Origin: an uncultured Gemmatimonadales bacterium
Lineage (GTDB): Bacteria; Gemmatimonadota; Gemmatimonadetes; Gemmatimonadales; Gemmatimonadaceae
Assembly: GCA_963793305.1 (NCBI GenBank)
Contig: CAWBZV010000005.1
Span: forward strand, 832,001-896,000
Length of the DNA stretch: 64,000 bases
Reading direction: 5' to 3'
Part shown: positions 41,354 to 60,805 of the stretch, in pieces
Layout of the letters: each line of letters opens with the position of its first letter
Numbering within the stretch: position 1 is the stretch's first letter
Notes under the pieces: model-generated
Database searches by the model: none
Seen by the model: only the letters and a program-made list of their open reading frames with translations
Told to the model about the DNA's origin: nothing
Made by a program: the position numbers and the translations under genes

Positions 41354-42569
41354 GACGACCCCAACCCCTCGCCCAGTCCCGAAGCGGCGGCTCGTCATGG
41401 GGGGTGCATTCATTCTGGTCCTGCTGATCGGGGCGACTATTGCCGGCACCGTGCCGCGGATCGCGACGCAGCATGCCCTCGCCCGCGTCGCGGCGGTCGA
41501 CACGATCCCCACGGTCAACGTCGTGAGCGTGGCGCGAGCCGGCGCCGCATCATCATTGACCTTGCCCGGCACGCTCCAGCCGGTGCACCAGGCGGCGATC
41601 TATGCCCGGGCGACGGGCTACGTAAAAAAATTCTTCGTCGACTTGGGAAGCACGGTGCGCGCGGGGCAGGTGCTCGGTATCATCGAGACACCGGATCTCG
41701 ATCAGCAGCTCACCCAGGCGCGGGCGATTCTCGCCCAGGATCAATCGATGCTGGCGCTCAATCGCACAGAGGATCAACGCTGGCAGCAGATGGTGAGGGA
41801 CAGCGTCGTCACCGTCGAGCAGTATGACCAGAAGCGTCAGGCGTATCAGGGATCCCAGGCCTCGGTCTTGGGCGACCAGGCCAACGTTGACCGTTTGAGC
41901 GCACTCGTGGGGTTCGAGCGGATCGTCGCGCCGTTCAATGGTGTCATCACCTCGCGCAACATCGACGTGGGCGCGTTCGTCACGGCGACGGGCGGTCAAA
42001 GTGCCGCGCTGCCGTCCGGGAGCAGTGTCGCTCCGACCAGCCTGTTCGGGATAACGCAGACGGACACCATGCGCGTGTATCTCTCGGTACCCGAGGCCGA
42101 CGCGCCATCGGTCCGACCGGGCGAGACGGCGCAGATCCTGGTCAGCGAGCTCCCCAACGACACATTTACCGGTCGCGTCGTGCGCACGGCGCGCGCCGTG
42201 GATCCGGCGTCGCGCACGCTCCTCACCGAAGTACAGGTCGTGAACGCAACGGACAAGCTCGTCCCCGGCATGTACGCCAGGGCGACGCTTGGGTTCGACC
42301 GCCAGACGCCGCCACTGACCGTTCCGGCGTCAGCCGTGCTGTTCCTTCCGGCGGGGCTCACCGTCGCCGAGATCGATTCGGATCACGTCGTCCAACGGCG
42401 CGTGATCGATGTCGGACGCGATTTCGGATCGTACTTCGAGGTCCTGTCGGGGGTGCATGAGGGGTCGCTGTTGCTCGATAATCCTTCCGATGCGGTTCCC
42501 AATGGCACCCGCGTGCGGTGGCAAGTGCACGCGGACACGACGCGCGCCCAACCAGTCACGGTGAAATGA
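41340..42569 (+). CDS. RND periplasmic adaptor (membrane fusion protein)
   Basis: IYARATGYV, APFNGVIT.RN, VDPASRT, PGMY. Confidence 0.9.
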   Translation: MSATETTPTPRPVPKRRLVMGGAFILVLLIGATIAGTVPRIATQHALARVAAVDTIPTVNVVSVARAGAASSLTLPGTLQPVHQAAIYARATGYVKKFFVDLGSTVRAGQVLGIIETPDLDQQLTQARAILAQDQSMLALNRTEDQRWQQMVRDSVVTVEQYDQKRQAYQGSQASVLGDQANVDRLSALVGFERIVAPFNGVITSRNIDVGAFVTATGGQSAALPSGSSVAPTSLFGITQTDTMRVYLSVPEADAPSVRPGETAQILVSELPNDTFTGRVVRTARAVDPASRTLLTEVQVVNATDKLVPGMYARATLGFDRQTPPLTVPASAVLFLPAGLTVAEIDSDHVVQRRVIDVGRDFGSYFEVLSGVHEGSLLLDNPSDAVPNGTRVRWQVHADTTRAQPVTVK

Positions 42570-44644
42570 TCATGAAACGATTCGTGAGCGTGATGCTGCT
42601 CTCCAGCGTCGCCGTAGGATGCGAGCAGCGCGCGGCGAGTACGTCGGAGGCGAACGGAGCCGTCGCCGAAACTGCGCCGTATCCCGACGCCGAGATTCTG
42701 GCGCACGCCGCCGACGATGCGGGCGATTGGATCCTGCCGGCCAAGTCCTATAGTAGCAATCGCGTGACGACACTCGGCGACATCACGCCGGACAACGTGA
42801 CGCACCTCAAAAAGGCGTGGGTCACGAAGCTGGCCGACGACGGCCAGCAAGAGGCGGCCCCGATCGTCTGGCGTGGCGTCATGTACCTGTCGACGCCCCA
42901 CAATCACATCCTGGCGCTCGATGCCGCGAGCGGCGCGCTCAAATGGGAAAATCCGTACACCGCTCAGTACACGATTCTCTATTTCGTCAATCGCGGCGTG
43001 GGCTTCGCCGACGGCAAGGTGTTCGAGGCGACGCAAGACTGTCATCTGATCGCGGCCGACGCAGCCACCGGCAAGACGCTGTGGAACGTGCGCGGGTGTG
43101 TCGACACGACGAACAGCCTCTATTCCATGGCCGCGTATCCCTATGACGGGAAGGTGCTCGTGGCCAATGGCGGAGGGGACAACGGGACCCGCGGGCATGT
43201 GCAGGCATTCAACGCCGCGGACGGCGCCGGTGCGTGGGATTGGGAAACCCTCAAACACGACACCTGGCCCGGCAACTCATGGGAGCATGGGGGCGGCGCC
43301 GTGTGGAGTGGCATGTCCGTCGACCCGGACACGCATACGCTGTTTCTGCCGGTCGGAAATCCGGGCCCCGATTTGATCCTGGCCGGCCGCGAGGGACCGG
43401 ATCTCTATACCAACTCCATCGTCGCGCTCGATGTGTCGACCGCCACGCCGCGCGTCAAGTGGTACTCGCAGCTGGTGCAGAACGACACGCACGACGTCGA
43501 TCCTTCCATGGCGCCCGTGCTGTTCACGGGCCGAGTCGATGACCACGCCCGCGCGATGGTGGCGATCGGGAACAAGGGCGGCGAGCTGTTCATGTTCGAT
43601 CGCACGACCGGCCAGTTGATCCATAAAGTCGTGGTCGATGATGACTACAACTTGTTCACCAGCGTGCCGACCCCGCAGGGAACGGTGGCGTGTCCGAACC
43701 ACGGCGGCGGCATAGAGTTCAACGGTGTCTCGTACGACTCGGCCACGAATCTCATATTGATTCCGAGCACGGACGAGTGCGGCGACTGGAAGACTACCGC
43801 GGCGACGGCGACCTACGTGCCAGGCCGGGCCTACACGGGTGGCAGCCTGCCGACACGCCGCGACGGTACCGGTGTCCTCACCGCCGTCGACGTTGCCACG
43901 GGCCGAGTCGCCTGGCGCGACTCGCTCGGCTTTCCAGCGCAAGGCGGTGTCACCCTGACGACAACCGGCCTGGCCTTCACGAGCGATCTCTCCGGACGCG
44001 TCTACTCGTTCGATATCAGGACGGGCAGGGAGCTCTGGCGCGATTCGACCGGATCGTCCATTGTCGCGCCGATCTCGATCTATCGTGCCAACGGCCATGT
44101 CTATGTCGCCGTGGTGAGCGGGGAAGCGGGAGCGCAGACGACGCCGAACTTGCCGCCGGCGAACGGCAGCGTCGTCACCGCGTATGCATTGGACGCAACT
44201 CGTCCTATCGTCAACTCGTCCGCGGACCAGGTACAGAGCTCGCAGCAAATCCAAGCTCCAGGCGAGGGCGGAGGCGCTCCGGCGAGTTCCGGCGCGGCGC
44301 CGTATACGTCGGCGCAGGTACAGACGGGCAAAACCGTCTTCTCGACTCAATGCGCCTCGTGTCATGGGACCCAGCTGCAGGGCATCTCGGCGCCGGGTTT
44401 GACCGGCCCGGGTTTCGGGCGCGGCAACATCAACCTTTCGGCGCTGCGCACGATCGTCACACAGACGATGCCCGCCACGGCGCCTGGCTCACTCACCCCC
44501 GATCAGTACGCGGCGGTCATGGCCTATCTGCTGGCGTACGATTGCGTGACGCCGAGTGGCAACGGCGCCGTGCCGTTCCCGACCACCGATCAACCGGCGT
44601 TCAAGGGCGTCACGATCGGCGGACGTTCGTGCCCAGTGAAATGA
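42566..44644 (+). CDS. PQQ-dependent dehydrogenase with C-terminal cytochrome c (quinohemoprotein-like)
   Basis: ALDA.SG..KW propeller repeats, GGGAVW, VGNPGP, CPNHGGG; heme motif CASCH; lipobox AVGC. Confidence 0.85.
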   Translation: MIMKRFVSVMLLSSVAVGCEQRAASTSEANGAVAETAPYPDAEILAHAADDAGDWILPAKSYSSNRVTTLGDITPDNVTHLKKAWVTKLADDGQQEAAPIVWRGVMYLSTPHNHILALDAASGALKWENPYTAQYTILYFVNRGVGFADGKVFEATQDCHLIAADAATGKTLWNVRGCVDTTNSLYSMAAYPYDGKVLVANGGGDNGTRGHVQAFNAADGAGAWDWETLKHDTWPGNSWEHGGGAVWSGMSVDPDTHTLFLPVGNPGPDLILAGREGPDLYTNSIVALDVSTATPRVKWYSQLVQNDTHDVDPSMAPVLFTGRVDDHARAMVAIGNKGGELFMFDRTTGQLIHKVVVDDDYNLFTSVPTPQGTVACPNHGGGIEFNGVSYDSATNLILIPSTDECGDWKTTAATATYVPGRAYTGGSLPTRRDGTGVLTAVDVATGRVAWRDSLGFPAQGGVTLTTTGLAFTSDLSGRVYSFDIRTGRELWRDSTGSSIVAPISIYRANGHVYVAVVSGEAGAQTTPNLPPANGSVVTAYALDATRPIVNSSADQVQSSQQIQAPGEGGGAPASSGAAPYTSAQVQTGKTVFSTQCASCHGTQLQGISAPGLTGPGFGRGNINLSALRTIVTQTMPATAPGSLTPDQYAAVMAYLLAYDCVTPSGNGAVPFPTTDQPAFKGVTIGGRSCPVK

Positions 44645-44653
44645 GGTAGCCAC

Positions 44654-46006
44654 GTGCTCACTCCGCTACTCGCGCTGGTGCTCCAGGCGCCGCTCCCCGA
44701 TCTGCCGACGGCGCGATCGCCGGTGACGATCACCGCGGCGACGCTGCCGGACGGACGCGACGGATACGTGTACGACGGGAACCCCGTGCCGCCCGTGATC
44801 CGCGTCGATCCGGGCGCCCGGCTCGAGGTAAGCCTGATCAACGCGATGACACTGCCGTCGCGCGAGCCGTGCGTCATGGATCCGTGCATGCAAGCGACCA
44901 ACCTCCACTTTCACGGCATGGGCGTGTCCCCGGTCGGGCACGCGGACAACGTGCTCGGGCTATCGGCTCGACCGGGCGACACGCTGCACTACGCGGTCGA
45001 GATTCCGCGCACGCATACGCCGGGCCTGTTCTGGTACCATCCGCATCCACACGGCGAGAGCGACCGTCAGATCAACGACGGCATGTCGGGGGCGATCATT
45101 GTCGAAGGAATCGAGCGGTTCGCGCCGGCGGTTCGCGGACTCCGCGAACGTGTGCTCGTATTTCGTTCGGTGCGAGATACTGTGGCGGCCCGCGCGGCGC
45201 TCGACTCGGCCGCCCAGACGTGCGGCTCCGAGCCCGAAGCACCGGAGATCGCTTGGACGATCAACGGTGTCGCCGAGCCGTCGATCGACATCGCGCCCGG
45301 GGAGCGCCAGTTCTGGCGAATCGTGAACGCGAGTGGGGATGGGTTTCTCGACCTGGCGATCGACGGCGCACCGTGGGAGATCGTCGCGCTCGACGGCTCA
45401 CCGCTGGGCGGACCGCCGCATATGGCGCAACACGTTTCGATCCCGCCGGCTGGTCGACTGGAGGCGATCGTCACCGGACCGTCCGCTGGCGCCGCGCTGC
45501 GGACGCGGTGCGTCGACACCGGGCCGGACGGCGACCCGGCTCCCGCGATGGTCCTCGCCCATATCGTAGCGGGTACCGGCCAGTCGCATCCGTCGCTTTC
45601 GTCCGCGATCCCTCGCCGGCAACGTATCCCGGACGATGCGCTGGCGGCGCAACGACGGCAGCCCGAGGCTGTCGTGACCTTTACCGAGGACGCGGGCGGA
45701 TTCTATATCAATGCGCGCAAGTACGATCCGACTGACAAAGCGATGTTCACCGTGCGCGTGGGATCATTCGTGCATTGGCGGGTGGTGAACCGCACCCGGG
45801 AGGTGCATCCCTTTCACATTCACCAGGTGCATTTCCTGACGCCCGATTCGCTGTGGCTCGATACGATCACCGTACCACCGGGGGATTCGTTGGATATTGT
45901 TCTCGACGCGAGGAATCCCATCATTCGCGGGCTGTCAGTTTTCCATTGTCACATGATCCGGCACGAGGACAAGGGTATGATGGCCAAAGTGCTGTTCACT
46001 GAGTAA
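44654..46006 (+). CDS. Multicopper oxidase
   Basis: NLHFHG, WYHPHPH, HPFHIHQ, HCHMIRHEDKGM. Confidence 0.92.
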   Translation: MLTPLLALVLQAPLPDLPTARSPVTITAATLPDGRDGYVYDGNPVPPVIRVDPGARLEVSLINAMTLPSREPCVMDPCMQATNLHFHGMGVSPVGHADNVLGLSARPGDTLHYAVEIPRTHTPGLFWYHPHPHGESDRQINDGMSGAIIVEGIERFAPAVRGLRERVLVFRSVRDTVAARAALDSAAQTCGSEPEAPEIAWTINGVAEPSIDIAPGERQFWRIVNASGDGFLDLAIDGAPWEIVALDGSPLGGPPHMAQHVSIPPAGRLEAIVTGPSAGAALRTRCVDTGPDGDPAPAMVLAHIVAGTGQSHPSLSSAIPRRQRIPDDALAAQRRQPEAVVTFTEDAGGFYINARKYDPTDKAMFTVRVGSFVHWRVVNRTREVHPFHIHQVHFLTPDSLWLDTITVPPGDSLDIVLDARNPIIRGLSVFHCHMIRHEDKGMMAKVLFTE

Positions 46007-48703: not shown

Positions 48704-49117
48704 TTACAAGTCGAGCGGCCCCGGCGTATCCGTGGTTTGCCCGACTTCGATCAGATAGCCGTCCGGATCACGCATGTAGCACCGTATCTCTGTTTCATGA
48801 ACCTTCGGCTCGGTGACAAACTTCCCACCGCGCGATGACCAGAGGTCATAGCACCGCTTGATGTTGGTGACGCGGAGATTCAGAAAGTAGCTCAAGACGT
48901 TCGGATCGCGCGGCGGCGACGCGACGACATCGGGTTTATCATCGGTTGGCCCGCCACCGAGGGCGATGATGATCCACGTATTCCCCAGTTGCACGTACGT
49001 CGGCTCCCCATCATCCACGACGGTAGCCCCCAGCACGTCGCGATAAAACGCCACCGATCGAGCGATATCGCGAACGATTACCGTGCTCGTCACTCTGAAC
49101 TGCGGTTCCGTTATCAT
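48704..49117 (-). CDS. VOC/glyoxalase family protein
   Basis: VRDIARSVAFYRDVLG and RDPDGYLIEV; ATG at 49117. Confidence 0.88.
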   Translation of the reverse strand: MITEPQFRVTSTVIVRDIARSVAFYRDVLGATVVDDGEPTYVQLGNTWIIIALGGGPTDDKPDVVASPPRDPNVLSYFLNLRVTNIKRCYDLWSSRGGKFVTEPKVHETEIRCYMRDPDGYLIEVGQTTDTPGPLDL

Positions 49118-49341
49118 GGCGGACCACCCTGTTCTTTCCAGGTCTTGAACCTCGCACACGCTTCGGCAGTCCACCGCGGCTCGCCAGCGCTCGGCGGAGG
49201 CATGTGCCCGCTCAGCACGGCCTCATAGATCGCATCGGCGTGTGCGAAGACGCTGTCGCGATCGGAAAGGTCCATTGCCTTCTTCATGTGGGCTACATCC
49301 ATGTCGGTGAACATGGGACGGATATCGGATGCGAAGCTCAA
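49114..49341 (-). CDS. 75-aa protein resembling a cytochrome c-like module without CxxCH
   Basis: GGAGG RBS then TTG; SFASDIRPMF..DLS...MPP....W......FKTW..QG; overlaps the VOC start. Confidence 0.65.
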   Translation of the reverse strand: MSFASDIRPMFTDMDVAHMKKAMDLSDRDSVFAHADAIYEAVLSGHMPPPSAGEPRWTAEACARFKTWKEQGGPP

Positions 49342-49353
49342 AATACCTCCTTC

Positions 49354-49409
49354 TGTCTATCGTTTGTCCAGTTTTTGTCCTTGACATAAGCTAGTCAAGA
49401 TGGTATATA
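49354..49409. promoter_or_regulatory. Divergent promoter with CarH-like operator repeats
   Basis: TGTC at 49354/49365/49376 (11-bp period); TTGAC-N8-GTCAA at 49381-49398; TTGACA-17-TATATA with extended TG. Confidence 0.7.
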
Positions 49410-49437
49410 TGTGTTGGCGGTTGGGCCCGGAGGGCTG

Positions 49438-49929
49438 ATGCAAATTCGACGCTATGTCCCCATCCTCGTCGCGCTCGCGACGCTCGTGGTGGTTGTCTCC
49501 TGCAGCTCGATCAGCCAGCGGAAGGTAGCGCAGATTGGCCCGCAGGATCCCCTCGGCAGTGCACACTGGACCGGCACATTGACGATGCCGAGCGGGTCGC
49601 ACGGCGCGTACGACGTGTCCGGCACGGCGTCGCTGGTTCGCAATGGACCCGGCAGCAGTGTGGCGACCGTCGTGATCAGCAACGCGGTACCCCGAGGATT
49701 CCATCCGTGGGAAGTCTACCGCGGACAGTGTGGCCATGACGCGAGCTTGATCGGCGTGTTGAGCGCGTATCCGTGGCTCGCTGTCAAGGACGACGGCACG
49801 GCCTCCGCCACCGCGACATTGGCCTCTGAGCTGTTGGTCGGCGACTATCACGTCAACGTGAACGCGTCGCCGACGGACAAGGCGACGATCATCGCCTGCG
49901 GCAATGTTGCGGCACCCAGCGGTACGTAG
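49438..49929 (+). CDS. Lipoprotein with Cu/Zn-SOD-like/CHRD-like fold, copy 1
   Basis: Lipobox VVSC; HPWEVYRGQCG, DDGTASA, YHVNVNAS..IIACGN; paralog at 54054. Confidence 0.65.
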   Translation: MQIRRYVPILVALATLVVVVSCSSISQRKVAQIGPQDPLGSAHWTGTLTMPSGSHGAYDVSGTASLVRNGPGSSVATVVISNAVPRGFHPWEVYRGQCGHDASLIGVLSAYPWLAVKDDGTASATATLASELLVGDYHVNVNASPTDKATIIACGNVAAPSGT

Positions 49930-49945
49930 CGCGACCACGTGACCC

Positions 49946-50398
49946 ATGCCCACACCGGGTAGAGACCGCGCCCGCGAGCTGGCGTGCCAACTGCTCACTC
50001 GCGAAACATTGGCGCCGCCGGGCGCCGACACGACAAACGGAGCCGACCGCGTCTGTCGACGCGCGTCCGACGAGCTGTCCCGTTGGATCGGTACCGATGG
50101 ATGTCGCGCCCTCTTCGCGCGCGCGTTGGCCACGGCCCAGGCCGAGGGCGGTCATCCCGTACTCGACACGGTGCGAACGAGCGCCCGGTCGGTGTACTGC
50201 CTGGACGGTCTGAGTGACGCCGCGGCCCGCCATGGCGCGGCGGCCGCTACCGATGGCGCGGCGGCCGTGCTCGCGGCGCTTATCGAGCTTCTCGGCCGAC
50301 TGATCGGAGATGATATGGCGTTGAGTCTTCTGGAACAAAGTGCGTACGCCCGTCCCCCGACCCCCGCCCGCGCCCGTCGCGGACAGGTGACCCCATGA
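49946..50398 (+). CDS. Helical hypothetical protein coupled to the KaiC-like ATPase gene
   Basis: LSRWIG.DG.RALFARAL and LIELLGRLIGDDMA.SLL pattern; ATGA overlap with the next gene. Confidence 0.7.
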   Translation: MPTPGRDRARELACQLLTRETLAPPGADTTNGADRVCRRASDELSRWIGTDGCRALFARALATAQAEGGHPVLDTVRTSARSVYCLDGLSDAAARHGAAAATDGAAAVLAALIELLGRLIGDDMALSLLEQSAYARPPTPARARRGQVTP

Positions 50399-51834
50399 TG
50401 ATTCACCTCGTGGGGCGCGACGACGAGATACGCGAGGACGAGATAGTGGATGGGTCGCTCATCGGATCCGTGCTGACGGCCGTCCCTGGTCTCGATGCGG
50501 TGCTGCGCGGCGGACTGCCGGAGCTCTCGTTCAACCTGATCGCCGGCGGACCAGGCGCCGGAAAAACCACGCTGGCGCAGCAGATCGTGTTCAGCAACGC
50601 CACCGTCGAGCGCCCCGCGCTCTATTTCACGGTGCTCGGCGAGCCGACCCTCAAGATGCTGCGCTACCAGCGGCAATTCCGCTTCTTCCAGTCAGACCTC
50701 GTCGGCACCGCCGTGCATTTCATCAATCTGGCCGAGGAAGTGCTGCGCGACGATCTCGCCGCGGTCCTCCACCGGATCGTCGACGAAGTCGAGCGCATCG
50801 GCCCGGCGTTCGTGGTCGTCGACTCGTGTCGCACCCTCGGCCTCCACGCATCGGGGCGGCAGACTCCCGACGCGATGGGCATGGAGCAATTCGTGCAGCG
50901 GCTCGCGCTCCAACTCACGACGTGGGAAGTGACCTCCTTTCTGATCGGCGAATACGCCGCGCCCGACCTCGCGAATCCGCTCTTCACCGTGGCCGACGGC
51001 ATTCTCTGGCTCTCGCAAGCGCCAGAACGCAACTCGGTCGTCCGCAAGTTGCAGGTGGTCAAGATGCGCGGGCGGGCTCCGATACCAGGTCTCCACACGT
51101 TCCGGATGACCGACCGCGGCATCCAGGTCTTTCCACGTATTCCGGGACACCAGGAAGCGCGCCGCCCGCGACGCCAAGAGCGGCTCGCCACCGGCGTCCC
51201 GGGACTCGATGCCATGACGGGCGGCGGCTATCCCGCGGGTGACGCGGTCTTGATCACCGGACCGGCCGGCAGTGGAAAGACGATGTTCGCCACGCAGTTC
51301 CTGGCCGATGGCCTCACGCGCGGCGAGGCCGGAGTCGCGGTCGTCTTCGAGGAATATCCGGACGCTTATCTCGCCCGAGCGACGGCGTTGGGTCTCGACC
51401 TCCAGGCGATGACCGAGCGACACAAGCTGGCCGTCATCTATCTGCGCCCGCTGGATCTCTCGGTCGATGAAACGCTGGCCGCCATCCTCGATGCCGTCGA
51501 GCGCCTCGGCGCGACGCGCGTGGTCATCGACTCATTGTCGGGGTTCGAGGTGGCGCTCGCTCCGACTTTTCGCGACGACTTTCGCGAGTCGCTCTATCGG
51601 CTCGTCGGGGCACTCACGGCGACGGGTGTCACCGTTCTCATGACCGCGGAAACGCCACTCGAACGCGTGTCTTTCGTGACAGACGACATCATCGTGCAAC
51701 GATATGTGGAGATCGCCGGTGAGCTCCGGCCCATGCTGGCCGTCGTCAAGATGCGCGGCAGTGCACATAGCAGAGACTATCGCGCGTATGAGATCACCGC
51801 GCGCGGTGCGGTCGTCGCGGATGCCGGTGCATAA
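50395..51834 (+). CDS. KaiC-like double-domain RecA-fold ATPase
   Basis: Two repeats with Walker A (GGPGAGKT, GPAGSGKT), Walker B (VVDS, VIDS) and VVKMRG in each. Confidence 0.88.
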   Translation: MMIHLVGRDDEIREDEIVDGSLIGSVLTAVPGLDAVLRGGLPELSFNLIAGGPGAGKTTLAQQIVFSNATVERPALYFTVLGEPTLKMLRYQRQFRFFQSDLVGTAVHFINLAEEVLRDDLAAVLHRIVDEVERIGPAFVVVDSCRTLGLHASGRQTPDAMGMEQFVQRLALQLTTWEVTSFLIGEYAAPDLANPLFTVADGILWLSQAPERNSVVRKLQVVKMRGRAPIPGLHTFRMTDRGIQVFPRIPGHQEARRPRRQERLATGVPGLDAMTGGGYPAGDAVLITGPAGSGKTMFATQFLADGLTRGEAGVAVVFEEYPDAYLARATALGLDLQAMTERHKLAVIYLRPLDLSVDETLAAILDAVERLGATRVVIDSLSGFEVALAPTFRDDFRESLYRLVGALTATGVTVLMTAETPLERVSFVTDDIIVQRYVEIAGELRPMLAVVKMRGSAHSRDYRAYEITARGAVVADAGA

Positions 51835-53622
51835 ATGGACCCCCTGGTTGCCGGGGCCGACGCGTCGCTCGCGCTCGTGCAGCACTTTCTGGAGCACGCA
51901 CCAGTGGCGTCAGCGGTCGTCAGCGGTGCCGCGCACGGATGCGTCTTCACCAACGCCGCGTTCCGGCGCATCAGCGCGGACGCGGGGGTGTACGCCGGCA
52001 TAGGTGATCCCATCGCCGATGCGTTGCCCGCTGAGGCGCGCGACGATGTGAACGCGTTGCTGGACCGCGTGCGGCGAGACGGCGTCGCGGCGTACCACGC
52101 GCGCATCGGACTCCTCTGGCTGTGCGACGCGTGGCCCGTCGTGGAGGAAGGCGGACGGTTGGACTATCTGGTCGTCACGCTGCGCCAGGCGCAACGCCGC
52201 GAGGTCACGCGGATGCGCCACCGGGCGATCACCGAGCGGCTGTTGCTCGCGGCGCTGCGCGAGCAGGATGGGGCCCGCCGCGCGGACAACGCGCGCGCCC
52301 GCGCGGTGTTCCTGGCCGAGACGAGTCGGCGCCTCGGCGGGTCCCTCGGGCTGGCCGCCGCCTATGCCGCGGTCGCGACGGTCGCGCTCCCGGTCCCGGG
52401 CGCGTGGTCCATCGTCGACGTCGACCAAGCCAATGGCGGCTGGCGACGGCTGGCGATCGCGCACCCCGATCGGACCAAGGAAGCACTCGCCGGCGAGCTC
52501 GCCGGACATTGGTCGCCGGCGCCCGGCGATCCGCTTGGCGTCCCACTCATCGCGCAGTCGCGCGTATCGACGATCGTCGCCTCGGACACCGAGGCGGTGC
52601 TCGCCGGCGCGGCGCACGGTCCGGATAATCTCCGTATTCTCCGCGCCCTCGAGCTCGGCGCGCTCCTCGTCGTGCCGCTCATCGCCCACGAACGGCTCCG
52701 CGGCGCCATCACATTCGTCAACCCGATGGAGGCCGCTCCGTATACGAGCGATGACGTCGTCCTCGCGGAGGACCTCGCGGCCCGTTGCGCGAATCTGCTC
52801 GATGGCGCGCGCCGCTACGACGACGGGCGCTTGGCCCAGATCGGCGCCGACACGGCGCGCGATGACGCCGAGCACGCCAACGAGGCGAAAGACGCCGTCC
52901 TCACCTCGATGAGCCACGAGCTCCGCACGCCGTTGAACGCCATCCTCGGGTATACCGAGCTGCTGACGTTGGGCACGCAAGGACCGGTGTCCGCGGACCA
53001 GACCGAGGCCTTGAGTCGGATTCGACGCGCGGGTATGCACCTGCTCGGCCTCATTAACGATGTCTTGCAAGTCGCGCGGCTCAGCGATTCGCAAGCGCGC
53101 TTTCTCATCACCGACGTGCCCGTGGGTGAAGTACTCGATGCGGCTGGGTACATGGTCGCACCGCTCGCCGTGGCCCAGCGGCTCGAGCTGGCGCGCGTGC
53201 CCTGTCCAGTGACGCTCTCCATGCACGCCGATCGGGACAAAGTGCTCCAGATCTTGCTCAACGTGCTGGCCAACGCGATCAGGTTCACGGCACCCGGCGG
53301 GCGGGTCATCCTGGCGGCGGTACCGGTCGATCGACGCCGGACCGGGAGCGCGCCGCCACTCGCTCCACCGGCGGCCGCACAGTCGGTGCGGCTCACGGTG
53401 AGTGACACGGGGCGGGGGATTTCCCTCGACCAGCTCCAGACGATCTTCGAGCCGTTCGTGCAGGTTGGCGCGCGCTTGGCGGGCAAGGACGAAGGGACCG
53501 GGCTCGGCCTCGCTATCAGCCGCGATCTCGCGAGAGGGATGGGCGGCGACCTCACGGTCGAGAGCACGCTCGGTGTCGGATCGACATTTACTCTGATCGT
53601 CCCCGGCGTCACCGTGGTGTAA
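51835..53622 (+). CDS. Cytoplasmic PAS-like/GAF sensor histidine kinase
   Basis: LLVVPL..RLRGAI GAF, SHELRTPLN, QILLNVLANA, DTGRGI, GTGLGL; ATG directly after the KaiC-like stop. Confidence 0.9.
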   Translation: MDPLVAGADASLALVQHFLEHAPVASAVVSGAAHGCVFTNAAFRRISADAGVYAGIGDPIADALPAEARDDVNALLDRVRRDGVAAYHARIGLLWLCDAWPVVEEGGRLDYLVVTLRQAQRREVTRMRHRAITERLLLAALREQDGARRADNARARAVFLAETSRRLGGSLGLAAAYAAVATVALPVPGAWSIVDVDQANGGWRRLAIAHPDRTKEALAGELAGHWSPAPGDPLGVPLIAQSRVSTIVASDTEAVLAGAAHGPDNLRILRALELGALLVVPLIAHERLRGAITFVNPMEAAPYTSDDVVLAEDLAARCANLLDGARRYDDGRLAQIGADTARDDAEHANEAKDAVLTSMSHELRTPLNAILGYTELLTLGTQGPVSADQTEALSRIRRAGMHLLGLINDVLQVARLSDSQARFLITDVPVGEVLDAAGYMVAPLAVAQRLELARVPCPVTLSMHADRDKVLQILLNVLANAIRFTAPGGRVILAAVPVDRRRTGSAPPLAPPAAAQSVRLTVSDTGRGISLDQLQTIFEPFVQVGARLAGKDEGTGLGLAISRDLARGMGGDLTVESTLGVGSTFTLIVPGVTVV

Positions 53623-53686
53623 GCCGTCCGAGCAGAGCGCGCATGAGCGTGGCTCGTATTATGCCCTGTCTCGTGTATGACATCAG

Positions 53687-53932
53687 GTGGAGCGCGTCAT
53701 GGCAGCACCGGCAATCGTGAGGCACCACGAGGATGGGCGCAATAACCCGCGCTCGCACGTCGGTGACCACGCGAGCGAGGATCCAACGATCGCTCGCGTT
53801 ATACCCCGAGGCGCTTGGCGCCGCGCGCACGTCCATCACTCGCGAGCTGAAGTCGTGGGGGTCATCCTGTGGTGGATCGTGATCGGCGCGCTCACGATTG
53901 GAAGCGTGATATTCATCATCGACCAACCGTAA
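53687..53932 (+). CDS. Small membrane protein
   Basis: Single C-terminal TM helix (VVGVILWWIVIGALTIGSVIFII). Confidence 0.45.
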   Translation: MERVMAAPAIVRHHEDGRNNPRSHVGDHASEDPTIARVIPRGAWRRAHVHHSRAEVVGVILWWIVIGALTIGSVIFIIDQP

Positions 53933-54053
53933 CATGCGACCTCGCGCGATGTAGCAGCACCATGCACGCTGTTGCTCGATCGGACTGTTGTCGGCGGCGG
54001 GGCACCTGACACGCCGGGGTGGTTGTCCGAGAGAAGTTGGCCCTGGAGGGCTT

Positions 54054-54551
54054 ATGTACGTTCGACATTACGCGCTCATCACGACCTCGCTCGCGACGCT
54101 GGCTATTGTCAGCTCCTGCAACCCGTTCGTCAGTCATCAGAAGGTCGGTCAGATCGATCCCAAGAACGCCCACTCGAGCACACAGTGGAATGGCACGCTG
54201 TCGACGACCGGCGGCATGAGCGGCGCGGTCGACATGCACGGCACAGTCTCGCTCGGTGCCAACGGACCCGGAAGCAGCCTGGCGACAATCGCCATCAGCA
54301 ACGCCGCTCCCAAGGGTGTCCATCCGTGGGAGGTCTACCGTGGCCAGTGTGGCAATGACGGTGACGTGATCGGTGCGTTCAGCGCTTATCCGCCGCTCAC
54401 GGTCAGGAACGACGGCACGGCGACGGCGATCGCGACGTTGCAGGCCGAGTTGCCGGTGACCGGCGACTATCACGTGAACGTGAACGCGTCGTCGACCAAC
54501 ATGGCGACGATCATTGCCTGCGGCAATCTCGCCGCGCCGAGCGGAGCGTAG
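54054..54551 (+). CDS. Lipoprotein with Cu/Zn-SOD-like/CHRD-like fold, copy 2
   Basis: Closely similar to 49438..49929, including the GGAGGG RBS region. Confidence 0.65.
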   Translation: MYVRHYALITTSLATLAIVSSCNPFVSHQKVGQIDPKNAHSSTQWNGTLSTTGGMSGAVDMHGTVSLGANGPGSSLATIAISNAAPKGVHPWEVYRGQCGNDGDVIGAFSAYPPLTVRNDGTATAIATLQAELPVTGDYHVNVNASSTNMATIIACGNLAAPSGA

Positions 54552-54560
54552 TTCGTAAGG

Positions 54561-54595
54561 CCCGCTCCTGACACTCGGCCAGTGTCAGGAGCGGG
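54561..54595. terminator. Perfect 15-bp hairpin between convergent genes
   Basis: CCCGCTCCTGACACT-CGGCC-AGTGTCAGGAGCGGG. Confidence 0.7.
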
Positions 54596-54702
54596 ATAGG
54601 CTCAACGCAAGAGATCGCCAACCCGCGCAACGACGAATCGATAGCCACAGGCCACGTGACGACGACTTCGCATTTGTTCGCGATGCGAGGTCGCTTTCGT
54701 TT

Positions 54703-55689
54703 CTACGGCGTCGCCGCGAATAGCCGATCCGGCACGAGCACGACCTTGCCCGCCACGCCAGCCGCGACGCGCGCATACGCCGCGGCGGCTTGAGAGAGCG
54801 GGTATCGCTCGACAACGGTGAGCGGAGCGAGCGCGCCGGACTCGAACAGCGGCACGAGCGCCGTAAGGACGCGCGCACATTTGACGGCCTCGTCGGCAAC
54901 TGTGTCGACGCTCAGCACGCGGAGGCGGCGGTGATAGAACGAGAGGAGGTCGAGCGTCACCTCCCGCCCGCCCGCGGCAGAGTAGACCACCATCGCTCCG
55001 CCTGGGGCGAGAGCGTCGAGCATCGGCTGAAAGATCGCGGCGCCGACGCCGTTGAGCGCGAGGTCGCAGCCGCGGCCATTGGTCGCGGCGCGGACGACCG
55101 ACACGAGATCGTTCTGGTCCGATCTCGCGATGGCCGCGACATTGGCAACGATGCGCGTGGCCTCAGCGGCGTCTTTGACGAGCGCGACCACGTGAGCGCC
55201 ACGCGCGACGGCGAGTTGGGTCGCGGCAAAGCCGACCGCACCGGCGGCTCCGGAGGCGACGAGCCACTGTCCCTCGGCCAGCTGCCCAGCTTGCACCACC
55301 GTCCACGCCGTGATGAATGGTACGCCGATCACCGCGGCCTGCTCGTCAGTGAGATTCTTGGGGCGGAATGCAATCGCGTCGCGGGGGAGCACTACGTACT
55401 CCGCGTGCGCACCATCTCGCCGAATGCCGAGATCGCCGCCGGACCCGTACACATCACGGCCGACGAGCTCCTGAGGGCCCTCCGTGACCCGTCCGGCGAA
55501 GTCGCGGCCGAGGGTGCGCGGAAGGCGGGCGTTGGCGAAACGGCCCTCGGCGCTGACGATATCGCTGGGGTTGATCGCGGCGGCGTGGACCTCGACCAAG
55601 ACGTCGTCCGGCCCCGGCGTCGGCATCGGGATATCGCTAGGAGAGAGCGCGGTGATCGGACCGTGCGCGGCTATGCGAAGCGCTTGCAT
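54703..55689 (-). CDS. Quinone oxidoreductase-like MDR protein
   Basis: AAAINPSD, LGRDFAG, GAAGAVG, GKVVL. Confidence 0.88.
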   Translation of the reverse strand: MQALRIAAHGPITALSPSDIPMPTPGPDDVLVEVHAAAINPSDIVSAEGRFANARLPRTLGRDFAGRVTEGPQELVGRDVYGSGGDLGIRRDGAHAEYVVLPRDAIAFRPKNLTDEQAAVIGVPFITAWTVVQAGQLAEGQWLVASGAAGAVGFAATQLAVARGAHVVALVKDAAEATRIVANVAAIARSDQNDLVSVVRAATNGRGCDLALNGVGAAIFQPMLDALAPGGAMVVYSAAGGREVTLDLLSFYHRRLRVLSVDTVADEAVKCARVLTALVPLFESGALAPLTVVERYPLSQAAAAYARVAAGVAGKVVLVPDRLFAATP

Positions 55690-55916
55690 TGCCTGCTAAG
55701 GATAACCCAACGCCCTGGTCGATAGACCCCTTTCAGTTCCACGCCATTGTTTCACGGCGTCCCGTGGCACGTTCGCGAAACGGTCGCTCTCGAGCGTGAC
55801 CGCGTGCCAACCATCTCGCTCGCTTCGACTTGTGCCCGTCGCACTCCGAGGCCCGCGCCCGGGTCCGGTCTTGCTATTGTACGCTCGCGTTCTCCCACGC
55901 ACACGAGGATACCGAG

Positions 55917-56831
55917 ATGATCCGATATGCAGTGCTGGCGCTCGTTGCGTCAGCGACGACGATCCAAGCGCAAAACATGATGCACGACGCGATGGCGTCG
56001 CACGATCCCAATTCCGCGCCGAAGGCGATGGTCGATCGATTCAGCGCCGCCGCCGGTCACTTGCAACTCCGCACGGCCGACAACGGCATCCCTCAGGCCA
56101 ACGCCCCCGTCGATTTCGACCACGGCCCGTTTATCACGATGGGGCACGGCCCCAAGGGCCAACTGGTCATGTACTACAACTTCGACGTCCAGCCGTCGAA
56201 GGCCGCGACGATCTATGTGTTGGTGCACGCGGGCTCGATGACGCCAGTCGAGGGCCAGTTGCCGATCATCGATGAGCTCCCCGGTGAGACCGGGTACAGC
56301 GACTTTCGTCAGGTCGTTCGCGTGACAGTACCGGCGGACTATCACACGAACACGGCCGCGAGCGTGAAGGACATCGAGAGCGCCGGTTGGCCGACGGAGC
56401 GAACCACGACGATCGTCAACGATCCGATCGTACCCGAAGGCTCGCACGCGCGCCACGGCATCGATGGACATCCCGCGCCGCTTCGCGCCGCGTGGTACCG
56501 TGGACAGACGGTGCGGTTTCTGGCATTCGAGCAGGATCTCCAGGGCGATGCCGCGGGGACCGTTCCCGTGTCACCGATCTTCGTCACGTTCGTGAAAAAC
56601 CCCGGCGAGTCCGGTGGTGGGCCCGGCTCGGGCTTCAAGACCGAGGGCGGATCGATGCAGACGCACAACGTCGTCGCCACGGTTCCCGGTGAGCCCGGGT
56701 ATTCACCCCTCTGGCAGGTGAGCGTGTACGACAACGGCGCGTTCGCGTTGGTCAGCGATCTCCCGTCGGTGGGGCGCGCCAAGATTCTTGCGCAAAGCGT
56801 CGCGCTGGTGAACTGCCCGGTCGTGCACTAG
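55917..56831 (+). CDS. Secreted protein with two internal repeats (DUF7482-like)
   Basis: Repeats PGETGYSDFRQV..IVNDPIV and PGEPGYSPLWQV..LVNCPVV; signal peptide. Confidence 0.6.
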   Translation: MIRYAVLALVASATTIQAQNMMHDAMASHDPNSAPKAMVDRFSAAAGHLQLRTADNGIPQANAPVDFDHGPFITMGHGPKGQLVMYYNFDVQPSKAATIYVLVHAGSMTPVEGQLPIIDELPGETGYSDFRQVVRVTVPADYHTNTAASVKDIESAGWPTERTTTIVNDPIVPEGSHARHGIDGHPAPLRAAWYRGQTVRFLAFEQDLQGDAAGTVPVSPIFVTFVKNPGESGGGPGSGFKTEGGSMQTHNVVATVPGEPGYSPLWQVSVYDNGAFALVSDLPSVGRAKILAQSVALVNCPVVH

Positions 56832-56844
56832 GGAGGACCATAGT

Positions 56845-56885
56845 CCGTCGGCCGCGGCGGCCTTGTCGGCCGCCGTGACCGGTGG
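56845..56885. terminator. GC-rich hairpin between convergent genes
   Basis: CCGTCGGCCGCGGCGGCC-TTGTC-GGCCGCCGTGACCGGTGG, imperfect stem. Confidence 0.5.
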
Positions 56886-56909
56886 AAAAGTGCTCTTCGC
56901 GGTGAACGC

Positions 56910-58876
<1,967 letters not shown>

Positions 58877-58901
58877 GAAGACTCCCGTTCGATAGACTAT
58901 G

Positions 58902-58980
58902 AACATATACCCCGGGATGGTATCTGTCAATGTTTTGTCCTAGACATATATTTGACAGACTCACGCTTGAGGCGTATCCT
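58902..58980. promoter_or_regulatory. Back-to-back sigma70-like promoters with TGTC/GACA operator repeats
   Basis: Minus strand TTGACA(58930-58925)-17-TATGTT; plus strand TTGACA(58952)-17-TATCCT; TGTC at 58925/58936 and GACA at 58943/58954. Confidence 0.7.
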
Positions 58981-59036
58981 TCAAGGGTCAGATCGCCACT
59001 CAGCCTTATGTCAGGAGCTGCCTTATGGATGGCCCA

Positions 59037-59342
59037 ATGCGCGAAGTCACGTTCACGCAGACGCACCGTCGCACACACCGGCGTCGCAACATCATCGTCT
59101 CGCAATTCGACGACACGAAGAGCGTGATTCCCATTCGGCCCAGTGAGGCTCCGGCTCCGGCGCTCTTGAACGACGGCCGCGCGTGGCGCTACATCGTGCA
59201 GACCGACGACGGCCCGTGGACGACGCATCGCCGTGTCGACATCTCGCTCGACGCATCGGACAGCGAAGTCGTGCTGGCGGTGGCGCGCCATCTGGCGAGC
59301 CCCGGTTGGAATCGCAATGCAGCCGTGGCGCGGATCCTGTGA
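59037..59342 (+). CDS. Hypothetical protein
   Basis: ORF downstream of the predicted promoter and an AGGAG; no family recognised. Confidence 0.5.
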   Translation: MREVTFTQTHRRTHRRRNIIVSQFDDTKSVIPIRPSEAPAPALLNDGRAWRYIVQTDDGPWTTHRRVDISLDASDSEVVLAVARHLASPGWNRNAAVARIL

Positions 59343-59344
59343 CG

Positions 59345-59647
59345 ATGGCCGAACGGGAATTCGACTTCGAGGACGACAGCCGCACGTTCTCGTGCCGCGT
59401 CGAGAAGCGGAACGAGTTGGCGGAACCATGGTGGTGGTTCAAGGTCTCCGGGGACAAGCAGCGCTATGCGCCGTTTCGGGCCGCCCCTGGCGATACGAAG
59501 TACGCGATTCAGTCCCGCATCACGCTGTACTACCGCGATCTCCTGGTCCGCCGCGCAACGCCGGCGGTCCCGTGGCACCGTCGCGGGAAGCCAGTTCCGA
59601 GTCCCGTTGTGGAAACACCTCCCGCGACGGATCCAACAACGGCCTGA
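59345..59647 (+). CDS. Hypothetical protein
   Basis: ATG 2 nt after the previous stop; FEDDSRTFSCRVE..WWWF.VSGD..RYAPF. Confidence 0.6.
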   Translation: MAEREFDFEDDSRTFSCRVEKRNELAEPWWWFKVSGDKQRYAPFRAAPGDTKYAIQSRITLYYRDLLVRRATPAVPWHRRGKPVPSPVVETPPATDPTTA

Positions 59648-59831
59648 CCGTTGGCCTGCCGCTCAGGCGTCGCAGTGCCAGTGCACCGGCGCCGAGCGCG
59701 GCTCCGCCCAGCGCGAGTCCCGCGAAGAGGGTGAGGCCGATGGCGACTAACGCGCCTCCGACAACGACCGCCATCGCGCCGACCGCAATGGCGGTCGCTT
59801 TGTTTCGTACCGTGATCTGATACACGCGCAT
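59520..59831 (-). CDS. Small membrane protein co-transcribed with the MerR gene
   Basis: ATG immediately follows the MerR TAG; two hydrophobic segments; tail overlaps the convergent ORF. Confidence 0.55.
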   Translation of the reverse strand: MRVYQITVRNKATAIAVGAMAVVVGGALVAIGLTLFAGLALGGAALGAGALALRRLSGRPTVRPLLDPSREVFPQRDSELASRDGATGPPALRGGPGDRGSTA

Positions 59832-60770
59832 CTACGTCTCCGACTGACCCGCGGCGCGGAGTGCCAGTCTCAAGTCGGTGAGACTCTCGATGACGTGGAC
59901 TCCCGTTCCCCTCAGCTCCGCGGCGATCTCGAGCGCGCCGGCTCCGCCGGCGAGCAGCGGTACGCGGGCCGCGAGTCGCACGCGCAACGTCCGCAGTTCC
60001 TGGAGCAGCAACTCGTCGTTGCCGGCTCGTGGCACCGTCACGCTGACCGCGCGAGCCGATGTGCTCGTGGCGGCCACCGCGATCTCGCTCACCGGCACGC
60101 CGGGACCGAGATACGTGACGCGCCACCCTTCGATGGCCGCTCCAGCCGTCGCCATGACGGCCTCGATCTCCTGGCGGTCGCCCACGGGAGTCGCCACGAG
60201 CAAGTTCGGGGCGTCGCCCGAGACGATGAGCACGGGCACAATGCCCTCGATGACTCGGCGGAGCGCGACGAGGACCAACTGCTCCTCGCCGGGGGCGAGC
60301 TCCCCAGCGCTGCGTTCGTCGCCGATCTGTTTCAAGAGCGGGGTCGCCACGGTGTCGAGAAACGCGCTGGCGCCGACGAGCGCGGCGGATCGCCGCAGCA
60401 GGCGCTCGAGACCGACGGCATCGAGGGCGCGCGCGCGGGCGCGAGCTTGGGCGACGTCATCCGCGGCCGTTGTGCCCGAGGTCCGTGCGCGACGAGTGGT
60501 GCCGAGTTGGCGGCGTGCTTCCTCGTCATCGCGGACCAGCCGCGCCAATTCTTTCGTGGGCAGCTTGGCAACCTGGGAAATGCCGCGTCCGGCCGCGGTG
60601 GCCAGGGCCATCAGGCGGAGTCGCTCGATATCGGCGTCGGAGTAGAGTCGCCGGCCACCATCGGTCCGCGTCGGCTCGATGGCGCGATAGCGGCGCTCCC
60701 ATACCCGGAGCACGTGCGGGCTGATGCCGGTTCGTTCTGCGGCCACTCCAATCGGATGTTCGTCTACCAT
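59832..60770 (-). CDS. CarH/LitR-like MerR regulator with degenerate cobalamin-binding domain
   Basis: LRVWERRY..P.RT.GGRRLYS HTH; helical bundle PLLKQIGD; Rossmann TP.GDRQE..GWRVTYLGP. Confidence 0.85.
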   Translation of the reverse strand: MVDEHPIGVAAERTGISPHVLRVWERRYRAIEPTRTDGGRRLYSDADIERLRLMALATAAGRGISQVAKLPTKELARLVRDDEEARRQLGTTRRARTSGTTAADDVAQARARARALDAVGLERLLRRSAALVGASAFLDTVATPLLKQIGDERSAGELAPGEEQLVLVALRRVIEGIVPVLIVSGDAPNLLVATPVGDRQEIEAVMATAGAAIEGWRVTYLGPGVPVSEIAVAATSTSARAVSVTVPRAGNDELLLQELRTLRVRLAARVPLLAGGAGALEIAAELRGTGVHVIESLTDLRLALRAAGQSET

Positions 60771-60805
60771 TTGTCAACGTTATATGATTGACATAGGTTA
60801 GTCAA
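60761..60805. promoter_or_regulatory. Promoter/operator of the CarH-like gene (probably leaderless)
   Basis: Minus strand TTGACT(60805-60800)-17-TAACGT(60782-60777), 7 nt from the ATG; TTGACATAGGTTAGTCAA palindrome. Confidence 0.65.

Follow-up and report, generated by a model that had tools for sequence, protein, structure and literature searches.

Three AT-rich sites in a 64,000-nucleotide stretch of DNA from an uncultured Gemmatimonadales bacterium (contig CAWBZV010000005.1, positions 832,001 to 896,000; hereafter the window) are best read as conserved operators of the CarH/LitR kind, likely bound by the adjacent CarH-family repressor, a protein in which the B12-contacting residues are missing. 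By covering -35 boxes, this repressor is predicted to repress its own gene, a groES-groEL operon devoid of a CIRCE element, and a block that encodes a CHRD-like protein, a KaiC-like ATPase and a kinase; we give this reading, which is built on sequence comparison, a probability of about 0.6. What the sequences show directly is the operator itself, which is specific within the genome, conserved, found together with the regulator family and overlapping with -35-like hexamers, and the loss of pocket residues from the protein. Only four loci in the genome fit, two of them being the promoters of the two CarH homologues.

The original prediction matched 49365-49388 with 58925-58948 at 20 of 24 positions and 49381-49398 with 60788-60805 at 16 of 18; recounting on the sequence reproduces both figures, and the degenerate pattern of each matched pair occurs at its two places only in the whole 5.72-Mb genome (G000, of which C2 and C21 below are other contigs). 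The 11-bp phasing of TGTC/GACA units that it described is present at 49354/65/76, 58925/36 and 58943/54, but at 60761 the sequence is CGTC rather than TGTC (60772 is TGTC). Alignment of the promoters of homologous regulators reveals a unit larger than first described, in which TGTCnA forms the left boxes and TnGACA the right ones. Sites A and C have the 44-bp form, TGTCnA-N5-TGTCnA-N10-TnGACA-N5-TnGACA, with box offsets of 0, 11, 27 and 38; in site B the same boxes interdigitate as a 33-bp dyad, with offsets of 0, 11, 16 and 27. The sites form 11-bp repeat pairs in mirror image, i.e. two pairs around a spacer of 10 bases (9 in some relatives), and site A is the sole site built with three tandem left boxes. 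The CarH repeat core is nnnnTnnACAn, and its 11-bp repeats overlap -35 and -10 elements (PMC9304148). The earlier proposal of a CarH-like operator with a TnnACA core over -35 boxes thus keeps its core, its spacing and its promoter overlap, but not its tandem layout.

Each site covers predicted promoter elements. In operator A, box 49381 is the predicted -35 element of a rightward promoter with a -10 candidate at 49404-49409, and box 49392 overlaps a leftward -35 candidate at 49398-49393. The outer boxes of operator B are the predicted -35 elements of both divergent promoters (-10 elements at 58907-58902 and 58975-58980); its inner boxes, 58936 and 58941, are no -35 elements. The promoter at operator C has its -35 at 60805-60800 and its -10 at 60782-60777, the last box of both A and C being a -35 candidate on the lower strand. 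The start codon of the regulator lies 6 nt past this -10, with identical spacing at a paralogous regulator gene on contig C2 (the C2 paralogue), and the regulator mRNA is therefore predicted to be leaderless. Sites A and C share 32 of 44 bases; in the congener G001, site A continues into three first codons identical to those of the regulator gene, and the first three residues and the upstream spacing of the 75-aa gene there equal those of the regulator gene. Site A thus probably arose by duplication of the promoter of the regulator gene and was then retained by selection, and given this likeness and the G001 codons, A and C are not independent instances.

The shared sites lie far beyond chance. 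Scoring the four boxes at every genome position returns A at 19/20, C at 18/20, B at 16/20 and the promoter of the C2 paralogue at 16/20, with no other position reaching 16; A and C are the two top scores in the genome. A weight matrix trained on 21 site strands from 14 loci, all from other genera, gives best scores of 31-42 bits at these four loci against 15.0 at the best unrelated position, and ten column-shuffled matrices have top scores of 15.8-22.0. The masking of the -35 box that the original prediction proposed also comes out in its favor: only six of the 753 TTGACA hexamers are accompanied by both non-anchor boxes (at -16 and -27), and all six lie in the four loci (0 of the remaining 747). 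The earlier caveat that some units are themselves -35 boxes is correct for several boxes, but the likeness survives their masking. A loose two-box core occurs by chance 2-6 times per genome at each spacing.

Comparison with orthologous promoters, a check that the original prediction had also proposed, reveals that boxes are kept and spacers drift (the five genus genomes examined are G000 and the congeners G001, G003, G004 and G005, G003 being a single-contig assembly). At site A, 20/20 box positions are invariant versus 13/24 others (G000, G001, G004); at site B all four boxes are invariant in 5/5 aligned orthologous sequences, G003 included; and at site C the figures are 19/20 versus 14/24 in five orthologues. 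The sites also track the regulator. Among 40 related genomes, 12 encode a full-length homologue, one (G008) has contig-end fragments, and 27 have none. We scanned these with the three-box pattern at one mismatch, counting matches in both orientations as paired: paired matches occur in 11 of the 12 (ten with the 10-base spacer, one more with a 9-base spacer) and in 0 of the 27, counts that are descriptive because related genomes are non-independent samples. The twelfth, G024, has a 13/15 site at best, and G008 has no paired match. Single-orientation matches appear in three homologue-free genomes (G002, G006, G022), similar to the reversed-pattern control (2 and 3 hits).

Beyond these genomes, 12 more from the family were chosen because they encode a close homologue, and 11 of them contain a site match. 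For metagenomes we sampled 80 of 582 loci, 72 of which had enough upstream DNA; a three-box core of at least 14/15 is present in 35 of these 72 homologue promoters, and the dominant spacings are 11 within a pair and 16, 26, 27, 37 and 38 across the dyad, with no recurring spacing in coding-region controls. A single-protein scan of species-representative genomes returned two close congeners only, and in G005 a contig end carries a MerR fragment of 44 residues, and there is a fragment of a distant groEL. Operators beside DUF378 genes in G010 and G017 (loci L073 and L067) have a 9-base central spacer.

The regulator that stands next to these sites was called CarH-like, and the family, the fold and the recognition motif bear this out, but the residues of the B12 photoreceptor are replaced. 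Its best PDB matches by sequence and by fold are Thermus CarH, the helix bundle and the whole Rossmann B12-type domain are kept (which places it in CarH/LitR in the broad sense), and its RxWERRY recognition motif is intact, which fits the TnnACA core of CarH/CarA operators (PMC9304148). Judged by four photoreceptor motifs taken from PMC11796333, three are lost. R153 stands in place of Trp and E163-Q164 in place of EH in the upper-face motifs (Wx9EH/GxxW and EH), and D/ExHxxG, whose His is the lower cobalt ligand, reads D198-R-Q200-x-x-E203, with Q200 for the lower His and E203 for Gly. We aligned 135 sequences, comprising 120 search hits and 15 from genomes (the G003 protein twice, and two fragments). 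In the 62 that are at least 60% identical, Trp is absent from 62/62 and the B12-motif Gly from 62/62 (Glu or Asp instead), EH is found in 15/62 and GxxH in 48/62, and none has all four motifs; 57 of the 73 more distant homologues have all four. The window regulator is thus, by signature, no B12 photoreceptor but a member of a conserved Trp-less subclade, whose membership is a lower bound since the family search over 401 genomes scored five candidates per genome. A quick tree, which included no myxobacterial sequences, nests this clade inside B12-type, fasciclin-linked homologues, suggesting that the window-type protein arose within Gemmatimonadaceae CarH. Codon differences in the C-terminal domain are 34 synonymous versus 16 non-synonymous against G001 and 39 versus 14 against G004; this excess of roughly 2:1 indicates that the domain is maintained under purifying selection. 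An independent degenerate CarH homologue in G017 (L074:8650-9585), with no Trp and with Gln for the lower His, faces a CHRD-like gene and an operator. A 103-aa open reading frame (ORF) of uncertain gene status (window 59520-59831, minus strand) starts right past the regulator stop and overlaps the 100-aa gene in antisense; it has a hydrophobic N-terminus, is 54-57% identical in G001 and G004, and is not evident in G003.

The groESL operon of the window is a second, CIRCE-less copy. A scan with the CIRCE consensus finds the element at the other groESL copy in 5/5 genus genomes and at 0/4 regulon-linked copies, and the four regulon-linked groEL sequences form a clade apart from the CIRCE-linked ones (FastTree support 1.0, 8 sequences). 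In G000 the CIRCE-bearing groESL is on C21, and HrcA is present. No match to the HAIR consensus within 2 mismatches lies at the three sites; a HAIR-like string right of operator B was rejected, since neither G001 nor G003 conserves it. In G000, the CIRCE-linked groEL (C21:23312-24899) aligns in two frames that are broken near residue 183; the gene is intact in G001, G003, G004 and G005, so the break is likely an assembly error. A third, divergent groEL (C2:821704-823548; 52-71% identity) apparently contains an insertion of some 100 codons, and the locus around it shows no CIRCE.

Chaperone genes recur beside these operators elsewhere in the family. Hsp20 flanks the operator in G001, G004, G058, G097, G146 and G335 and at metagenome loci L142, L151, L156 and L157, and GAF kinases follow it in G014, G214, G293 and G335; the usual neighbors of the regulator family are fasciclin genes (the commonest) and DUF378, DUF2867, photolyase-like and desaturase genes. 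The window block appears to be a rearranged family regulon with a chaperone arm, groESL being a genus-specific addition. Carotenoid genes are not a target: in keeping with the earlier remark that the window holds neither crt nor photolyase genes, no site lies near crtB of G000 (best matrix score 7.0 within 10 kb), and the PF00875 photolyase was not found in 5/5 genus genomes of 67-95% completeness.

The evidence divides over the protein that reads the sites, and the observations that weigh against the window protein as the reader begin with its paralogue. The C2 paralogue is 42% identical to the window regulator, has the same recognition-helix motif and is preceded by its own 33-bp operator, to which operator B is closer than it is to operator C; given the shared motif and the additional operator copy, on the evidence of G000 alone either protein could read each site. 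The paralogue could be a B12 photoreceptor and the main reader, making this an ordinary light regulon with unusual targets in which the window protein is a modulator (by hetero-oligomer or competition) or mainly autoregulatory. It keeps GxxW, EH and GxxH, a homologue of the 101-aa gene lies behind both its site and operator B, and a cobalamin adenosyltransferase is encoded in all five genus genomes tested. However, by alignment register it lacks the Pro of GxxxP, and Gln replaces the acidic residue that precedes its lower His. The quick tree places it in a separate, Hsp20-linked group. What decides us is G003: both paralogues are present in G000, G001 and G004, but G003 has one full-length homologue, of the window type, and retains operators B (intact) and C. 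The case for the window-type protein as reader of the groES operator is founded mainly on this, and we consider the paralogue unlikely to be the main reader. Beside the paralogue's operator in G000 (C2:623386-623478; L034:11387-11479), the Hsp20 gene that stands between operator and 101-aa homologue in G001 and G004 has been cleanly lost, the second clean loss of a regulon gene besides that of fasciclin.

Even if the window-type protein is the reader, it might bind cobalamin or another tetrapyrrole in a non-photoreceptor mode and act as a cofactor or redox sensor. The full CarH fold is retained, most of the Trp-less subclade keeps the lower His (48/62), the G003 orthologue keeps EH and the lower His with Glu for Gly, and a domain lacking the signature bound hydroxocobalamin (PMC11796333); some cobalamin binding may therefore occur within the clade. 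On the other side, 8 of the 24 closest sequences, the window protein included, have Gln instead of the lower His, which is therefore not under strict selection, and the Glu or Asp in place of the B12-motif Gly is without exception; we judge a cofactor sensor unlikely, slightly more so than control by the paralogue. That there is no operator at all, the likeness coming from back-to-back sigma-70 -35 boxes and descent from a duplicated promoter, draws on the -35 candidates among the boxes (2/4 in B, up to two in A) and on the similarity of A and C with the regulator-like codons at site A of G001. It is very improbable and largely refuted, as no other TTGACA hexamer carries the non-anchor boxes, the non-promoter boxes are invariant where spacers drift, and the box pattern tracks the regulator across genomes. 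There remain, on the debit side of our reading, the absence of operator A from G003, the poor leftward -10 at operator A, the non-independence of the co-occurrence counts, a groESL link that was found in one genus only (4 genomes and metagenome locus L112), and a candidate partner, the 101-aa protein, that is basic, unlike the acidic antirepressor CarS.

If the sites are indeed operators of the window-type repressor, an oligomer would set four MerR domains on the two mirror-image pairs of 11-bp repeats and would block sigma-70 polymerase sterically, with no need of adenosyl-B12; autoregulation would act on the predicted leaderless transcript. The original prediction had this regulator repress itself, groESL, the KaiC block and the 75-aa/VOC genes: operators do stand in front of all of these, and repression itself is predicted from their position. 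By analogy with Myxococcus CarA, an ancestral light-stress regulon (fasciclin, Hsp20 and GAF kinases in sister genera) may have been kept while sensing moved off the chromophore. Release would most likely come through a protein partner or protein-folding stress, the signal being the least supported step. Control could be shared with the B12-signature-bearing paralogue, which in G000, G001 and G004 would add light input at the same operators. A bolder proposal, which we regard as doubtful, is that a photoreceptor lineage without its B12 chromophore now provides chaperonin repressors of a third kind, next to HrcA and HspR, with a dedicated GroES-GroEL and a mirror-image operator; a partner, for instance the 101-aa protein, would let it sense folding or oxidative stress.

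Table 1. Predicted operators and genes of the window (window coordinates; strand as +, - or. for none)
Feature	Position	Strand	Remarks
CarH/LitR-family MerR regulator	59832..60770	-	312 aa; MerR_1 and sub-threshold B12-binding (Pfam)
Operator A	49354..49397	.	44-bp form; left boxes 49354, 49365 (extra 49376); right boxes 49381, 49392
Operator B	58925..58957	.	33-bp form; between divergent groES and 101-aa gene
Operator C	60761..60804	.	44-bp form; covers the regulator's own predicted promoter and first codons
groES, secondary chaperonin operon	58568..58876	-	Cpn10 (Pfam); no CIRCE upstream
groEL, secondary copy	56910..58547	-	Cpn60_TCP1 (Pfam)
CHRD-like predicted secreted protein	49438..49929	+	first gene right of operator A; 60% paralogue at 54054-54551
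150-aa ORF, KaiC-like ATPase and kinase	49946..53622	+	abutting; syntenic in G001, G004
Double-domain KaiC-like ATPase	50395-51834	+	
GAF-HisKA-HATPase kinase	51835-53622	+	
Deletion junction, ~430 bp	53941..53944	.	fasciclin gene here in G001, G004 and metagenome locus L112
75-aa ORF	49114-49341	-	left of operator A
VOC/glyoxalase gene	48704-49117	-	start/stop overlap with 75-aa ORF (block 48704..49341)
101-aa protein	59037..59342	+	basic, isoelectric point 11; right of operator B
100-aa protein, unnamed family	59345..59647	+	2 nt past 101-aa gene

The first gene right of operator A had been labelled SOD-like, a label that we withdraw: its product matches neither Sod_Cu nor any other Pfam or NCBIfam family and is CHRD-like by language-model features, the nearest named Atlas clusters being CHRD (0.93-0.95). 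The 150-aa ORF, KaiC-like and kinase genes are predicted to be co-transcribed from operator A, and fasciclin was lost from G000 by clean deletion. Just past the second CHRD-like gene, a strong GC-rich inverted repeat (54567-54594) likely marks the end of the rightward operator A transcript. Between this block and groEL lie a zinc-type dehydrogenase and a DUF7482-like secreted protein (54703-56831); in G001 and L112 a second KaiC-like/kinase pair takes the place of the DUF7482-like gene. The closest CHRD-like gene of G003 (L220, C1, upstream of 2190148) faces a MarR gene across an AT-rich spacer with divergent promoters, which holds a consensus sigma-70 promoter and a lone two-box core; a different stress regulator may control the gene there. 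This core (TGTCAA-N10-TTGACA) was not counted as a site, as the loose form is common by chance. Farther left, a PQQ dehydrogenase-cytochrome c fusion followed by a multicopper oxidase (42518-46006) has no operator in front.

Co-occurrence makes the 101-aa protein the best candidate for a partner: the genus has seven copies of its gene, all of them behind a 33-bp operator, and they pair one-for-one with the seven copies of the regulator. It has no Pfam, NCBIfam or Atlas match, and its model (pLDDT 74) has a best structural match of Z 5.2 with a root-mean-square deviation of 4.4 over 67 residues, which is at background level. A role as a CarS-like DNA mimic is unsupported, the protein being basic. 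The 100-aa protein was dropped as a dedicated partner, since it occurs in 24/40 related genomes regardless of the regulator. Seven soil metatranscriptome runs contained 6-12% of the sampled sequence words, and four of the seven were analyzed further. Their contigs 90-97% alike to the CHRD-like genes, the kinase block, the 101-aa gene and parts of the regulator were not used as evidence; they are assemblies of relatives, uninformative on starts, strand and level, with a groEL depth inflated by other organisms.

These findings provide a precise operator and a four-promoter regulon prediction for a poorly studied phylum. Operators of the CarH family in Gemmatimonadaceae sit repeatedly on chaperone genes, Hsp20 in several genera and a second groESL in this genus. 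This is relevant to the question why several groESL copies, with different repressors, are maintained in bacteria. Across the clade the B12 residues are lost in steps, Trp and Gly before the two His, which offers a natural series from photoreceptor to cofactor-independent repressor, a shift so far worked out mainly for CarA and Pseudomonas class II proteins.

Compared with CarH and class I LitR (Thermus thermophilus CarH, PDB 5C8D/5C8E/5C8F; CarH of Bacillus megaterium and Myxococcales), the window system has the same MerR domain with RxWERRY, helix bundle and Rossmann domain, the same 11-bp repeats with a TnnACA core over promoter elements and, as predicted here, autoregulation. It differs in that the protein lacks Trp, both His residues (that of EH and the lower one) and the Gly after the latter, in that two mirror-image pairs replace 3-5 tandem repeats in one orientation, and in its predicted targets, which include groESL; as noted above, no site lies near crtB and no PF00875 photolyase was found. 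Closer in some respects is Myxococcus xanthus CarA, the B12-independent CarH paralogue released by the antirepressor CarS, which is likewise derived and Trp-less and shares its operators with a B12-type paralogue present alongside it. Two inverted repeats were the first description given of the CarA operator, and CarA keeps EH and the classic B12 motif (PMC9304148); the window protein is in contrast also without both His residues, although its G003 orthologue keeps them and has Glu for Gly. CarA and the acidic CarS are a precedent for B12-independent release through a partner (PMC8156234), but in the window system we identified no acidic partner resembling CarS, and carotenoid genes are not among the predicted targets. 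The class II LitR proteins of Pseudomonas (PmlR2/PplR) are also CarH-family repressors without a need for B12, PmlR2 being released by a LOV protein (PMC9758184); these consist of the helix bundle only and bind TGTACA-N12-TGTACA, whereas the window protein keeps the whole Rossmann domain, and no LOV gene was found among the genes scanned next to it.

Among known chaperonin regulators, HrcA/CIRCE and HspR/HAIR share with the window system the repressor control of groES-groEL, which is predicted here, but neither a CIRCE nor a HAIR consensus lies at this groES, and in this genus HrcA and CIRCE serve the other groESL copy. HspR is itself of the MerR type; the window regulator scores 37.7 bits against the HspR model, whose cut-off is 105, a weak match in the DNA-binding domain only. 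HspR co-represses groE in Helicobacter pylori (PMC9696931). The operator core and the protein family are already known; in the open-access literature we found no paper linking CarH/LitR to groESL, Hsp20 or Gemmatimonadota.

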